The notes under the pieces are model-generated. The model worked only from the letters and a program-made list of their open reading frames with translations, was not told the origin of the DNA and searched no databases. From the IMG/VR virus record IMGVR_UViG_2657245461_000004: a stretch of 4,538 nt of DNA, one strand, 5' to 3'. Each line of letters begins with the position of its first letter. Position 1 is the first letter of the stretch. The stretch comes from a virus. Taxonomy: Duplodnaviria; Heunggongvirae; Uroviricota; Caudoviricetes. Positions 45 through 4,538 of this stretch are shown here, one piece after another. Both the position numbers and the translations under genes were made by a program.

Positions 45-239
45 TCAGGCTACCTCACCCGTCCCGGATACCGAGAACGTTTCGTCCAGCAACTGGAGAG
101 AGTTCGACGGTGGCATCATTGCCCATGCCGGAGGCGCTGGAGGTTTCGGCTGAGGATGGCACAGGGCATTTTCCTTTGACGAGCACCCGACCACCATTAT
201 CAAGCTTGCGCCGAAGAGCATCATTTTCAGCTTTCGCAT
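45..239 (-). CDS. Rz1: Rz1-type outer-membrane spanin lipoprotein (o-spanin)
   Basis: 64-aa ORF in an alternate frame inside the Rz gene. N-terminal signal peptide with lipobox IMVVG-C (Cys19) followed by a short proline-rich mature part ([11 protein letters not shown]), as in lambda Rz1. Its stop (47..45) lies 10 nt beyond the Rz stop. Confidence 0.8.
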
Positions 240-459
240 CAGCTAACTCCTTCGTGTATTTAGCATCGAGTGCATCAGCATCACGCTGGCGCTGCTGCAT
301 GTCAGTAATGGTTGCGTTCGCCAGCTTCAGTTCTCCGGCGTTTTTGTCGCGCTGCTCTTTGTAGGTAATGGCGTTATCACGGTAATGATTAACAGCCCAT
401 GACAGGCAGACGATGATGCAGATAACCAGAGCGGAGATAATCGCGGTGACTCTGCTCAT
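55..459 (-). CDS. Rz: Rz-type inner-membrane spanin (i-spanin)
   Basis: ATG at 459..457 overlaps the endolysin TGA (ATGA). N-terminal TMD ([22 protein letters not shown]) followed by a charged, helix-prone periplasmic domain ([46 protein letters not shown]) that closely resembles lambda Rz as recalled. The ORF-track start at 474 is 5 codons upstream in the same frame. About 134 aa, shorter than lambda Rz. Confidence 0.85.
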
Positions 460-989
460 TGATCTATCCCCCAACAGGCTAATGCGCTTTCCTGGTCACG
501 ACGAATAACCTGTCCATAGCAGTTATTTGAACGTATGCGGCAATCGCGCCCAACATCTTTTATCCACCAGCGAATCGCCTCGCATGCGCCCTTACGATCA
601 CCGGCATTCAGCCGCTTATAAAACGTCGACGGGAAACACTTACCGGGGCCAATGTTATAGGGGCAAAATGACGCTATACCCGCTTTCTGGGGTTCGGTCA
701 GAGGTACTTTAATATTGCGCTCCACCCATGCCAGCGCCTTATCACGTTCAATAGCGTTAACCTGGTCACATTTTTCCTTCGACAGCTTCATTCCCGGTAT
801 GACAGGCTTACCATCCACCATTGTGGCACCACGACAGATGGTCCATATGCCAGAACCATCACGGTATGCCGTTGTGTGATTACCCTCTTTTTCGTTCAGA
901 AACTGGTCAAGTATCTGGGGAGCAGACGCGCCTGCGGCAATCAGCGCCAGAACAGCAGCCGACAGGCCGTATTTGATTTTTGCGCTCAT
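456..989 (-). CDS. R: SAR endolysin, T4-lysozyme-like muramidase (GH24)
   Basis: 177 aa. Gly/Ala-rich weakly hydrophobic N-terminal signal-anchor-release segment ([21 protein letters not shown]) with no Cys. Catalytic E-x8-D-x5-T motif ([16 protein letters not shown]). C-terminal region follows the pattern of P21-type lysozymes (YNIGPG...GD.KGAC...RW...CWG). Lies between pinholin and Rz/Rz1. Confidence 0.9.
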
Positions 990-1054: not shown

Positions 1055-1684
1055 TCAGCCCCGGCTGGATCCAGTCATCAGGCTCTTTCTTAAAGGGGGA
1101 GTATTGAAATCACGAAGAAGAGCCTCCCGCACCGCAGCATCCATGTCTGCACCACTGGCAAGTGCTTCAATCTCTGCCGCCACCTGCAAATACCCCATGC
1201 AACGGCCAATGCGTTTCATAACTCTGGTGTTTTCGTCTTTCAGGCATCTGATAGCGAGATTAATAATTTTCAGGCAGTGATGATGCGATGCCCGGACAGG
1301 TTTTCCGTTCTCATAAACGACGAACTCACCCTCTTCACAGGAAACCCTGAAAGGCCGATGGGGTTCCTGGTCTTTATCCGGTGCAGACGCAATAAAATCA
1401 CTTTTATGCTCTTCCTCTCCGGCACTGTTAACCGTAATGACGTACTCAGGCCGCAGGTAAGCCGCCTCTTTTTCTGACAATGCGGCCGGTAAAAACTTTT
1501 CCTGCAAAAACTTCATAAAAGTCTCGTGAGCGACTTTGTGGCAGTAATCGTAAATCGCCGCATAATGCTCATCGCGGCGTTTGTTTTCATCTTCAGAACT
1601 CACCAACGCCGACAATTTTTTATTAAGCTCAGTGATTTCATTTTCCAGGTGATTGAATCGCTGATTCATTTCTTCATGCTTCAT
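1055..1684 (-). CDS. hypothetical protein, 209 aa, acidic, no TMD; inserted between pinholin and endolysin
   Basis: Long ORF starting ATG 1684..1682, 4 nt after the holin-A stop (TAAATAATG), with an SD-like GGGGAGAG upstream. N-terminal coiled-coil-like segment (EEMNQRFNHLENEITELNKKLSAL), several Cys/His (YCHKVAH, HHHC). I recognise no family from the sequence. Coding status is supported by length, coupling and absence of a competing sense-strand ORF. Confidence 0.6.
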   Translation of the reverse strand: MKHEEMNQRFNHLENEITELNKKLSALVSSEDENKRRDEHYAAIYDYCHKVAHETFMKFLQEKFLPAALSEKEAAYLRPEYVITVNSAGEEEHKSDFIASAPDKDQEPHRPFRVSCEEGEFVVYENGKPVRASHHHCLKIINLAIRCLKDENTRVMKRIGRCMGYLQVAAEIEALASGADMDAAVREALLRDFNTPPLRKSLMTGSSRG

Positions 1685-1687
1685 TAT

Positions 1688-1873
1688 TTACTCTCCCCGT
1701 GCAGCCTTACGCTTGTCTTCTCTTATTTTGAAATACAGATTCGTCAGATAAGTCAGAAGCCCCAGAAGCAGACTTCCCAGCACACCAATCGCAGCCCACT
1801 GTGATGGCCTGACCTGATCCAACCACTGCAAAAACCAGTAGCCGGCACTGCCGGCGGGGGGGCCGTAGGCAAT
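1688..1873 (-). CDS. S: class II pinholin (S21-like), copy A, 5'-truncated by scaffold gap
   Basis: Translation ...[61 protein letters not shown], stop TAA 1690..1688. About 88% nucleotide identity to copy B. The N-terminus is lost in the N-run. The G7 homopolymer at 1856-1862 at the contig end may be a sequencing error (it gives PP where copy B has TS). Confidence 0.7.
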
Positions 1874-1883
1874 NNNNNNNNNN
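1874..1883. other. assembly/scaffold gap (10 N)
   Basis: Run of 10 n. Flanked by a truncated pinholin copy on one side and the first 14 nt of an endolysin-like gene on the other, so this is a contig junction. Confidence 0.95.
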
Positions 1884-1897
1884 AATGATGGCGACAT
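1884..1897 (-). other. 5' fragment of a second SAR-endolysin gene (MSPS-), cut by the gap
   Basis: ATG 1897..1895 overlaps the holin-B stop TAA (TAATG) and reads M-S-P-S-L/F before the N-run. As recalled, phage 21 R begins MPPSLRK immediately after S. SD-like GAGGTGA upstream. Confidence 0.45.
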
Positions 1898-2112
1898 TAT
1901 TCACCTCTCGCAGCCTTACGCTTGTCTTCTCTGATTTTGAAGTACAGATTTGTCAGATAAGTCAGGAAGCCCAGAACCAGACTCCCCAGTACACCAATCG
2001 CAGCCCACTGTGACGGACTGACCTGATCAAGCCACTGTAAAAACCAGTAGCCAGCACTGCCTGCGGAGGTGCCGTAGGCAATGCCCGTTGAAATTTTGTC
2101 CATGGATTTCAT
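1897..2112 (-). CDS. S: class II pinholin / antiholin, S21-type with dual starts (S71/S68), copy B
   Basis: 71 aa [71 protein letters not shown]. Two in-frame Met (M1, M4) separated by a Lys, a Gly/Ala/Ser-rich TMD1, a hydrophobic TMD2 and a basic C-tail. Essentially the phage 21 S21 sequence as I recall it. SD GGAGG 7 nt upstream of ATG 2112. Confidence 0.9.
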
Positions 2113-2401: not shown

Positions 2402-2402
2402 T

Positions 2403-2550
2403 CACAGTTAATCGGAATAAAAGCAGAGTGCTTATGAATGATCGCCTGCCCGAAGGTTAGTATTTCTGCACAGCAATTTTGCAAAAAAAAGCGATCATTC
2501 ATAACTTAAACGTCTTTCAGTCACTCCGGGATTTCCCATCATCGCAGACT
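2403..2550. repeat. 148-bp repeat, copy Y, immediately downstream of the tRNA cluster
   Basis: Same unit as copy X. Nested inverted repeats: 14-bp arms 2432-2445 / 2491-2504 (ttatgaatgatcgc) with 45-bp spacer, and 11-bp arms 2512-2522 / 2547-2557 (gtctttcagtc / gactgaaagac) with 24-nt loop. Confidence 0.9.
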
Positions 2551-2563
2551 GAAAGACTCTGAC

Positions 2564-2638
<75 letters not shown>

Positions 2639-2641
2639 ATA

Positions 2642-2717
<76 letters not shown>

Positions 2718-2719
2718 AC

Positions 2720-2796
2720 TGGACCGCCACCGGGGACTCGAACCTCGCACACTCAACTTAAAGGGTTGACGCTCTTTCCTGATGAGCTAGTGGCGG
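2720..2796 (-). tRNA. atypical tRNA-like gene, anticodon UUU (Lys) if functional; possible pseudo-tRNA
   Basis: Reverse complement CCGCCACUAGCUCAUCAGGAAAGAGCGUCAACCCUUUAAGUUGAGUGUGCGAGGUUCGAGUCCCCGGUGGCGGUCCA folds as a cloverleaf with a perfect 7-bp acceptor stem and anticodon stem UCAAC/GUUGA. Non-canonical features: loop CCUUUAA has C at position 33, the 5' end is C1, the discriminator is U73, and the T-stem has an A-C mismatch. Confidence 0.5.
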
Positions 2797-2797
2797 T

Positions 2798-2873
2798 TGG
2801 TGGCCCTTGCTGGATTTGAACCAGCGACCTGGCGATTATGAGTCGCTCGCTCTCACCACTGAGCTAAAGGGCC
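2798..2873 (-). tRNA. tRNA with anticodon CAU, most similar to tRNA-Ile2 (lysidine-modified, AUA decoder); Met not excluded
   Basis: Reverse complement GGCCCUUUAGCUCAGUGGUGAGAGCGAGCGACUCAUAAUCGCCAGGUCGCUGGUUCAAAUCCAGCAAGGGCCACCA. Canonical cloverleaf, anticodon loop CUCAUAA. About 90% like E. coli ileX as I recall it, with C4-G69 and C5-G68 acceptor pairs. Same position as ileZ in Stx-type phages. Confidence 0.8.
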
Positions 2874-2882
2874 GGGCGCAGG

Positions 2883-2911
2883 ATAATAACGTTACGAAAT
2901 CAATGTTGCAA
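2883..2911 (-). promoter_or_regulatory. candidate sigma70 promoter for the tRNA cluster
   Basis: On the minus strand: TTGCAA (2911..2906), 17-nt spacer, TATTAT (2888..2883). The first tRNA 5' end (2873) lies about 10 nt downstream of the -10. Sequence-pattern prediction only. Confidence 0.45.
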
Positions 2912-2975
2912 GCATTCAAAAATCACCCTTATCTCCTCCACCAGCGCATTCACCATGTCTATCCGAGATAAGTGG

Positions 2976-3004
2976 CACAAAAAACCCGCTTGTGGGCGGG
3001 TTTT
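2976..3004 (-). terminator. intrinsic terminator (tR'-like), potentially bidirectional
   Basis: Minus strand AAAA-CCCGC-CCACAA-GCGGG-TTTTTTGTG: 5-bp GC stem, 6-nt loop, U6 tract. The plus strand reads as a hairpin followed by TTTTGTTTG. Lies about 70 nt downstream of the putative late promoter. Confidence 0.65.
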
Positions 3005-3054
3005 GTTTGCTTTTGCCATCACGTACAAAATCGGCAAAGTATCAGATTTGCATG

Positions 3055-3083
3055 AATATATGCCTTTCAATCTACTTTTGCAA
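3055..3083 (-). promoter_or_regulatory. candidate late promoter (pR'-like) overlapping the 3' end of Q
   Basis: Minus strand TTGCAA (3083..3078, within the last Q codons), 17-nt spacer, TATATT (3060..3055) directly after the Q stop. This is the position expected for pR'/qut in lambdoid phages. Sequence-pattern prediction only. Confidence 0.5.
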
Positions 3084-3755
3084 CACTTTGCTTTGAAAAT
3101 GCCGTCTTTTTTTTGAACGTGTTCTCATTACAAACAATAAAGCCTCACTATCCAGTCGGTGAAAAATGTGTTTCATTGCAACCCAGTGACGAGTAAATGT
3201 TTTGGACCAGTTTTTAGTTGTCACTCCCGCCAGTAATGCCAGCTCCTGGTATTCATAACCTTCCCCACCAAAAAGTTCTGCTTTTACTGCCTGCGCCGCC
3301 AGCCAGATTAATTTTTTCAGGCGTTCCTGCGTTTTCCCTGCAATTTTTCTGGTACCGGATTGAGCATTAAATTCATTCCACGCCCACTGTGTTATCGCGA
3401 TCTGATATTCCCAACAAATACTCCCGCTGTAACACCACAACAACCAGGCTTTATAGTGCTCTTCAAGAGACAGAACAGCCCGCCGCCACGATGATGTCGA
3501 AAACTCAACCGGACTGACCAGAGGAATTGACGTCCCCTTCGCCAGCGATTGCTTTCCCGGGATTGGTGGATTATCCCGCGTTATCATTTTTCCAGTCACT
3601 TCATCGCGGTACCGGATTTTTTTACGCCTGTAACGCCCTGTATCGAACATGGCATTCTCTTGCCAGGCTTCAAGCTGACCTTTTGTTGCCCCACTCAAAT
3701 CAGCGGTGGCGATAATGAGCTGCTCACGCACAAACTGTAAATACTGGTTATTCAT
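3072..3755 (-). CDS. Q: putative late-gene antiterminator Q (non-lambda type)
   Basis: About 227-aa ORF whose ATG (3755..3753) overlaps the rusA stop (ATGA). The ORF track starts at GTG 3761. Position between rusA and the pR'/tR'/tRNA/lysis block matches Q of lambdoid phages. Several Cys/Trp-rich segments. The call is mainly by synteny; I cannot verify homology without a search. Confidence 0.6.
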   Translation of the reverse strand: MNNQYLQFVREQLIIATADLSGATKGQLEAWQENAMFDTGRYRRKKIRYRDEVTGKMITRDNPPIPGKQSLAKGTSIPLVSPVEFSTSSWRRAVLSLEEHYKAWLLWCYSGSICWEYQIAITQWAWNEFNAQSGTRKIAGKTQERLKKLIWLAAQAVKAELFGGEGYEYQELALLAGVTTKNWSKTFTRHWVAMKHIFHRLDSEALLFVMRTRSKKRRHFQSKVLQK

Positions 3756-4117
3756 GCGCACCCCAGTTCTGTGATTTTTATCCCCAGCCGCCCACCAGGA
3801 ACGAGCTGACCGCGCACAATATTGATTTCATCAAACTGCTCGTCGTCTATAAGTAGTCCAGCATGCGTCAGCGCATCCAGCGGTGCCTTCAGGATATTGT
3901 CCAGGTCACGACGGCGCTTATCCGGTGGCTCTGCAATAATCTTTATCGCCAGCCTTCCGGACAGGTTTAATTTCAGTCGCTGCTGGCGAACAATTAGCGC
4001 CACATCACGGCGATAACGCTCACCGGCTTTTGATACAAAATATGTGCTGCCACGACGTCGCCAGTAGGTGTTCACCGTTGGCGGGTAAGGCAAAACAAAT
4101 TCTATGCGTTCGGTCAT
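3752..4117 (-). CDS. rusA: crossover junction endodeoxyribonuclease RusA (Holliday junction resolvase)
   Basis: 121 aa with the RusA family pattern LPYPPTVNTYWRRRG ... PDKRRRDLDNILKAPLDALTHAGLLIDDEQ ... GGRLGIKITELG. ATG 4117 directly follows the upstream TAA (TAAATG). Confidence 0.9.
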   Translation of the reverse strand: MTERIEFVLPYPPTVNTYWRRRGSTYFVSKAGERYRRDVALIVRQQRLKLNLSGRLAIKIIAEPPDKRRRDLDNILKAPLDALTHAGLLIDDEQFDEINIVRGQLVPGGRLGIKITELGCA

Positions 4118-4387
4118 TTATGCTTTCCACTTCAGAACACCCGAATTTCTCGCGTGCATTAAAAAACGAATCAGCAACAACAACTGACTACCGTGTTTTT
4201 CTTCAAAATCTTTTACCCCGGCGTGTAGTTCGTTATGGCATTTACGACACAGCGGAATAACAAACAAATCGTCAGCCTTTGTTCCCATCCCTCCCAGTCC
4301 ATGACCAATGATGTGGTGCGGATCATCTGCCTGATTGCCACACGTCATGCATTTCTGCGTTTTTACCCAGCGCGTGTATACAGGCAT
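4118..4387 (-). CDS. ybcO: YbcO/DUF1364-like putative zinc-binding nuclease; true start uncertain
   Basis: The C-terminal 89 aa from ATG 4387 (SD-like GGGAAGAG upstream) carry the pattern C-x2-C ... HHIIGHGLGGMGTKADDLFVIPLCRKCHNELH, matching the E. coli YbcO motif as I recall it (G-L-x-G-x-G-x-K-x-x-D-L ... C-x-x-CH-x-E). The frame is open upstream through GTG 4459 to the window edge, so the gene may be longer or 5'-truncated by the window. Confidence 0.6.
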   Translation of the reverse strand: MPVYTRWVKTQKCMTCGNQADDPHHIIGHGLGGMGTKADDLFVIPLCRKCHNELHAGVKDFEEKHGSQLLLLIRFLMHARNSGVLKWKA

Positions 4388-4538
4388 CTCTTCCCGTTGT
4401 GGTTTCTGGCGCTGGAGATACTGAGCCGGAGATTCCGGATCAACGGCAATGCTGACCACCGTCTCTTCCTGTGGTGGATTCTGTTGCTGGTGGGCGTGAG
4501 GCAGCGGCGCAAGATTTTTTGTGCGCTGCTTCAGTATG

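Follow-up and report, generated by a model that had tools for sequence, protein, structure and literature searches.

A viral record in which two pinholin genes stand one behind the other, separated by a run of Ns, raises the question of whether the source genome carries a genuine tandem holin duplication, or whether two related lysis cassettes were placed next to each other when the draft was assembled. We addressed this question for a stretch of 4538 nt (hereafter the window) from the record IMGVR_UViG_2657245461_000004, in which all genes lie on the minus strand. Our analysis shows that the tandem pinholins are very probably an artefact of assembly and scaffolding that joined two defective lambdoid prophages, designated P1 and P2 below.

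Layout of the window

The window consists of three contigs, at 1–1873, 1884–2391 (508 nt) and 2402–4538, which are separated by two N runs of exactly 10 nt each (1874–1883 and 2392–2401). Fixed runs of 10 N may serve as placeholders for gaps of unknown or negative length. Read from right to left, the gene order is the C-terminal part of a DUF968 protein, RusA, Q, four tRNAs, holin copy B and a 14 nt start of rrrD, followed by the first gap. To the left of this gap lie the last 186 nt of holin copy A, a 209 aa ORF, a lysozyme, Rz with Rz1 and a 58 nt IS end. No uninterrupted sequence therefore joins the two holin copies, as 10 N occupy 1874–1883 and copy A stops at the end of its contig.

The two pinholin copies

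The copies form an ungapped direct repeat of 186 nt, 1688–1873 against 1897–2082, with 88% identity, which bears out the value of about 88% given in the original prediction. Counted from the site lists, 23 mismatches separate copy A from copy B, and two of these (1858 and 1861) are probably errors. A blastn comparison between the end of the left contig and an independent holin gave an E value of 1e-63, far beyond chance.

Copy B (1897–2112, minus strand) is a complete ORF of 71 aa that encodes an S21-type class II holin/antiholin, the body of which carries P2 alleles. It matched the Pfam family PF04971 ('Bacteriophage P21 holin S') over its full length with 121.5 bits, at a cut-off of 26, and was 98.6% identical over 71 aa to the holin of Escherichia phage 21 (OL657228.1). 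The S21 pinholin forms heptameric channels of ~2 nm, which collapse the proton motive force and release the SAR endolysin, and its MKSM dual-start motif gives rise to the antiholin from Met1 and the holin from Met4 (PMC9636201). The N-terminus of copy B, MKSMDK, contains this dual start (Met1 for the antiholin, Met4 for the holin), with Lys2 as the extra positive charge.

Copy A (1688–1873, minus strand) belongs to prophage P1 and comprises codons 11–71 and the stop codon. The first 30 nt (10 codons) are missing because the contig stops at 1873; the original prediction had already recognized that this contig ends inside the holin. The dual start of copy A is thus not found in its own contig, and it is 2083–2112 that supplies those 30 nt. 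When copy A was completed with this segment, three of the 71 residues differed from copy B (S32R, V46L and F49L, with the two suspect bases excluded). Both holins are ordinary S21-type pinholins, and by homology with phage 21 each is predicted to have two transmembrane helices and to form small heptameric channels.

The suspect bases at 1858 and 1861 are G substitutions that create the run GGGGGGG, 13–16 nt from the end of the left contig, and they would change Thr-Ser to Pro-Pro in the first transmembrane segment of the holin. These were the only mismatches between 1–1873 and AE014073.1, and no relative has either of them. Among 5426 complete E. coli genomes, none matched the last 94 nt of copy A above 96.8% identity. 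We consider that both substitutions are probably sequencing errors at a contig end.

The contigs map to two separate prophages

In the E. coli genome NZ_CP065613.1, the left contig aligned at 5.022 Mb with 99.2% identity, within prophage P1, where the annotation reads holin, hypothetical protein, lysozyme and lysis protein. The middle and right contigs aligned at 0.651 Mb (99.0 and 99.7% identity, respectively), within prophage P2, which is annotated with DUF968, RusA, Q, four tRNAs, holin and rrrD. Placed on this genome, the middle and right contigs overlapped by 149 nt, and the separation between P1 and P2 was ~0.70 Mb.

Closer relatives were found by exact-protein look-ups, and it was through these look-ups only that Shigella genomes were sampled. 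The 209 aa protein was found in finished genomes of 4.4–4.7 Mb, including AE014073.1, which we take to be Shigella flexneri 2a 2457T. The left contig aligned to AE014073.1 and its relatives from end to end, across the IS junction as well, and only two mismatches were seen. The right contig was 100.000% identical over 2137 nt to LR213455.1, CP012735.1 and NXMF01000001.1 (loci L016, L017 and L018). P1 and P2 lie at 3.26 and 1.91 Mb in LR213455.1, a separation of 1.35 Mb, and at 0.71 and 1.95 Mb in CP182555.1, a separation of 1.24 Mb. In both of these genomes the order in P1 is holin, 209 aa ORF, lysozyme, Rz and IS, and the order in P2 is DUF968, RusA, Q, four tRNAs, holin and an rrrD gene cut by an IS66-family element.

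The original prediction held that cassettes of two different lambdoid prophages had been joined by scaffolding, and the separate loci in finished genomes uphold this part of it. The contig at 1884–2391, however, is not simply a piece of the other prophage, but a hybrid of the two, as described below. The accompanying warning that gene order should not be trusted across 1874–1883 was justified.

Single holins in finished genomes and phage records

If the tandem were real, recombination or an IS-mediated rearrangement would have put a 5′-truncated holin A beside a complete holin B, and the Ns would stand for a short unsequenced stretch. We searched for such an arrangement in three sets of sequences. 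The first set comprised 5426 complete E. coli genomes. Top hits there reached 94% coverage, but this was rejected as a sign of a real tandem, as one and the same holin had been aligned to each of the two copies; the best E. coli matches to 1500–2112 covered 404 nt of the record, which corresponds to one holin. Tandem holins were found in none of the 438 records (438 places) of the phage collection. Nor were any present at the 16–18 P1- and P2-type loci that we inspected in finished or gap-free sequences, each of which has one holin of 71 aa. The original prediction had argued against a real tandem duplication, and the single holins in finished loci and phage records agree with it.

Substrates for a rearrangement do exist, in that one and the same IS3-family end borders the two loci of finished relatives, and IS elements abound in Shigella-type genomes. 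Against this stand the absence of the arrangement from the E. coli genomes, phage records and Shigella-type loci just described, and the fact that copy A breaks off precisely where its contig ends and bears two private substitutions in a G-run. We therefore regard a real arrangement as highly improbable. Should the fused prophage cassettes nevertheless be real in this strain, for which we see scarcely any chance, a truncated pinholin without the start of its first transmembrane domain might be dominant-negative and antiholin-like.

Genes and elements of the left contig

The left end of the first contig (1–58) is an IS3-family terminus of ~58 nt, which truncates Rz and Rz1. In single E. coli genomes this segment was matched at 100% up to 43 times, on chromosomes as well as plasmids, and in AE014073.1 (L008) the match is contiguous with an HTH_Tnp_1 and rve transposase at 5692–6848 of that locus. 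An IS66-family reading of 1–58, suggested by a match beside ISEc22 in locus L003, was rejected by comparison of L008 with L003; the L003 match is an IS3-family fragment next to ISEc22. The same IS3-family end was also observed in the P2 locus of finished relatives, at a distance of ~2 kb past holin B, where 1–57 of the window matches 8993–9049 of L016.

The i-spanin gene Rz (55–459, minus strand; PF03245, 83 bits) has its 3′ end replaced by the IS, and its homologue is annotated as 'lysis protein' in L001. The o-spanin gene Rz1 (45–239) is embedded in Rz, and PF06085 was called at the homologous place in L004 and L006. The IS insertion alters the C-terminus of Rz1 and truncates Rz, exactly as in AE014073.1. 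The neighbouring lysozyme of 177 aa (456–989, minus strand) matched PF00959 with 85 bits and the endolysin family phrog_7. Its gene lies 700 nt downstream of copy A, past the 209 aa ORF, and its N-terminal segment is rich in Gly, Ala and Ser. From this segment and established knowledge, we read the protein as a putative SAR-type endolysin.

The 209 aa ORF (1055–1684, minus strand) is positioned between holin A and the endolysin. It belongs to phrog_1085, a family of unknown function (E=1e-73), and had no match in Pfam. The exact protein occurs at the same position in at least eight finished genomes, and the ORF may represent a moron or an accessory gene of the lysis cassette.

Genes and elements of the middle and right contigs

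The middle contig begins with 14 nt of an rrrD/R21-type endolysin gene of prophage P2 (1884–1897, minus strand), which reads ATGTCGCCATCATT and whose ATG overlaps the TAA stop codon of the holin. The gene annotated as rrrD in NZ_CP065613.1 (L002) begins with these 14 nt, in keeping with the earlier description of the copies as separated by 10 N and a 14 nt endolysin start, and 1884–2183 was 100% identical to the rrrD locus of that genome. In the relatives AFHD01000002.1 (L012) and LR213455.1 (L016), rrrD runs only to nt 17, beyond which an element of the IS66 family has inserted. The junction reads ATGTCGCCATCATTACG directly followed by GTAAGCGCCCC... in both, and TnpA, TnpB_IS66 and DDE_Tnp_IS66 genes come next. 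It is found at 1912–1935 of L012 and around 7075–7080 of L016, homologous to the position just left of 1884 in the window. The left end of the middle contig is 3 nt from the IS66-family terminus.

The observation that the contig of copy B starts 14 nt into an R-like gene, which formed part of the original prediction, can now be accounted for: only a stub of rrrD is present because the IS66-family element cuts the gene after nt 17 in relatives. In those relatives the insertion leaves a P2 cassette that has a holin without an endolysin. Both lysis cassettes of the source genome appear to be decayed, with rrrD cut beside copy B, and Rz and Rz1 truncated downstream of copy A.

The right contig (2402–4538, minus strand) is the late-regulatory region of prophage P2, made up of intergenic sequence, tRNAs, Q, RusA and DUF968. 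ARAGORN placed a tRNA cluster between Q and the holin, consisting of Gly-TCC (2564–2638), Thr-TGT (2642–2717), Lys-TTT (2720–2796) and Met-CAT (2798–2873). The CAT tRNA is annotated as tRNA-Ile in RefSeq relatives, and a tRNA-Arg in P1 takes the place of the tRNA-Lys of P2. The cluster is followed by the Q antiterminator of 229 aa (3072–3761; PF06323), RusA (3752–4117; PF05866) and the C-terminal part of the DUF968 protein (4118–4538; PF06147). An exact look-up of the 229 aa Q protein returned a single draft contig, and an exact look-up of RusA returned many finished genomes; the single match for Q arose because other genomes call Q from a different start (227 aa), and does not reflect rarity of the locus.

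At 2981–3004 and 3055–3083, we noted a GC-rich hairpin, just downstream of Q and with runs of T on either strand, and a promoter-like site at the Q stop codon. The latter reads TTGCAA-17-TATATT on the minus strand. Judged from a consensus scan, the positions of the hairpin and the promoter-like site would fit a putative pR′/tR′ pair, as found in the late region of lambdoid phages.

The middle contig is a hybrid of P1 and P2

A comparison of P1 with P2 within one genome, LR213455.1 (L005 against L016), yielded 27 differing sites in the part that corresponds to the middle contig. At all 21 sites within 1900–2062, in the body of the holin, the middle contig has the P2 base, and at the other six (2184, 2213, 2243, 2287, 2288 and 2331) it has the P1 base. 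The switch between alleles falls inside a block of 121 nt (2063–2183) that is identical in P1 and P2, the longest identical block between L005 and L016. The same P2-to-P1 pattern was seen against NZ_CP065613.1 and against the gap-free draft contig AFHD01000002.1. The contig at 1884–2391 is a hybrid of a P2 path and a P1 path.

The P1 half of this hybrid provides the true continuation of the locus of copy A. The segment 2083–2391, which comprises the 5′ end of holin A and P1-type upstream intergenic sequence, has no mismatch to the sequence that follows the end of the left contig in AE014073.1 (L008) and LR213455.1 (L005). By this exact match, the window does contain the 5′ end that copy A lacks, along with the sequence upstream of it, shifted by 209 nt. 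The P2 sequence homologous to 2083–2242, on the other hand, is absent from the window.

Because 2083–2391 continues copy A exactly, both gaps are overlaps rather than missing sequence. The first placeholder (1874–1883) is flanked by homologous sequence, 1688–1873 corresponding to 1897–2082, and the link between the left and middle contigs reflects a real adjacency, by way of 2083–2391, that was written as an unmerged overlap. The second placeholder (2392–2401) is flanked by a further overlap, absent from the original prediction, in which 2244–2391 with P1 alleles faces 2403–2550 with P2 alleles over 148 nt at 98% identity. Judged from these flanks, the second gap is an unmerged overlap of P1-type and P2-type intergenic sequence, with no sequence missing. 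Two of these results weigh further against a real tandem arrangement, namely that 2083–2391 contains, base for base, both the missing start of copy A and the sequence upstream of it, and that the second gap has the same overlap signature.

We infer that the hybrid arose in the assembler and not in the cell. The alternative is that the 508 nt contig is faithful and derives from a third prophage-like locus, a natural recombinant in which the rrrD start and holin B are combined with P1-type upstream sequence; the scaffold would then mix three loci, and there would still be no tandem duplication. Such a locus is conceivable given that the late regions of lambdoid phages are mosaic, and that this holin family occurs at up to 6–7 places per E. 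coli genome. Moreover, some E. coli genomes match 1910–2391 at 99.2–99.4%, above the value for P2, which shows that similar mixtures of alleles occur naturally. However, the P2 half and the P1 half of the contig are both 100% identical to the respective prophage of single finished genomes, with the switch located in the 121 nt block, and the exact hybrid is found in no finished E. coli genome. In the 5426 complete E. coli genomes the whole 508 nt reached at most 99.0% identity, with no 100% match, and the 331 nt that span the switch reached at most 99.1%. The left end of the contig also coincides with the rrrD/IS66 junction that is specific to P2. Finally, under a third locus both 2083–2391 of P1 and the P2 homologue of 2083–2242 would be missing from the assembly, whereas a model with two loci requires nothing additional. 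On balance a third locus seems very unlikely, and we favour a hybrid of P1 and P2 that was formed during assembly.

The contig ends were also compared with the positions of the variants. Besides the left end of the middle contig near the IS66-family terminus, the right contig starts exactly on a P1/P2 site (the homologue of 2243), and the right end of the middle contig falls 60 nt beyond the final P1/P2 site; this agreement with features of the repeat speaks for the artefact. The left contig, by contrast, extends just 20 nt beyond its last P1-specific site. We attempted to derive a single de Bruijn k from these contig ends, and rejected the idea as the distances from variant sites (60, 20 and 0 nt) gave no consistent k.

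Proposed origin of the arrangement

We propose that the source genome, most likely of a Shigella-type Escherichia, would contain two remnants of lambdoid prophages riddled with IS elements. P1 would consist of tRNAs, intergenic sequence, holin A, the 209 aa ORF, the SAR-type lysozyme, Rz with a truncated Rz1 and an IS3-family element, and P2 of DUF968, RusA, Q, four tRNAs, intergenic sequence, holin B, 17 nt of rrrD and an IS66-family element. The two loci share a repeat with ~88% identity in the holin body, then 121 identical nt, made up of ~50 nt at the start of the holin gene and ~70 nt upstream, and then 97–100% identity up to the tRNAs.

The assembler would have broken the contigs at the boundaries of this repeat. 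It may have entered the 508 nt contig on the P2 path (the rrrD stub and holin B), passed through the 121 nt block and left on the P1 path. The resulting hybrid would truly adjoin the left contig by its P1 half and the right contig by its P2 half, and these two true adjacencies would explain why the scaffolder chose the order left, middle, right. At each junction 10 N would have been inserted because the imperfect overlaps (88 and 98%) could not be merged. In this model, the true P1 locus would read 1–1873 and then 2083–2391, continuing into a region outside the window, and the true P2 locus would read IS66-family element, 1884–2183, P2 alleles from 2184 onwards and 2402–4538.

Consequences for annotation

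The tandem arrangement is no real feature, and it matters for data quality only. Gene order is unreliable across both N runs, and since the middle contig is a hybrid, removal of the gaps would restore neither true locus. Annotation would turn copy A into a truncated pseudogene with two spurious Pro substitutions, and the 14 nt 'endolysin start' and the duplicated intergenic segment of 148 nt could pass for biology. More generally, the case shows that two prophage paths can be mixed within a short contig that lies between gaps of fixed length. The genes involved are already well known, comprising phage-21-type pinholins, a putative SAR-type lysozyme, Rz/Rz1, Q and RusA.

Comparison with known systems

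The closest counterpart of the left part of the window is the cassette of AE014073.1 at ~0.72 Mb, which contains Q (PF06530), holin, the 209 aa ORF, lysozyme, truncated Rz and an IS3-family element. It matches 1–1873 of the window with two mismatches and then 2083–2391 with none, but it has a single complete holin, and its upstream Q is unlike the Q of the right contig. The P2 gene order is that of the rrrD-type (R21-like) E. coli cassette at 0.65 Mb in NZ_CP065613.1, with Q, tRNAs, holin, rrrD and Rz. A difference is that rrrD is cut after nt 17 by the IS66-family element in the closest Shigella-type relatives and, presumably, in the source genome of the window.

In its structure, the window resembles the repeat-induced chimeric contigs and unmerged-overlap gaps of short-read drafts. 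The likeness extends to contig ends that fall at repeat or variant boundaries, to a haplotype switch within an identical block and to Ns of fixed length between homologous ends. As for the holins, we see no functional difference between those described here and S21 68 and S21 71 of phage 21 (class II, PF04971).
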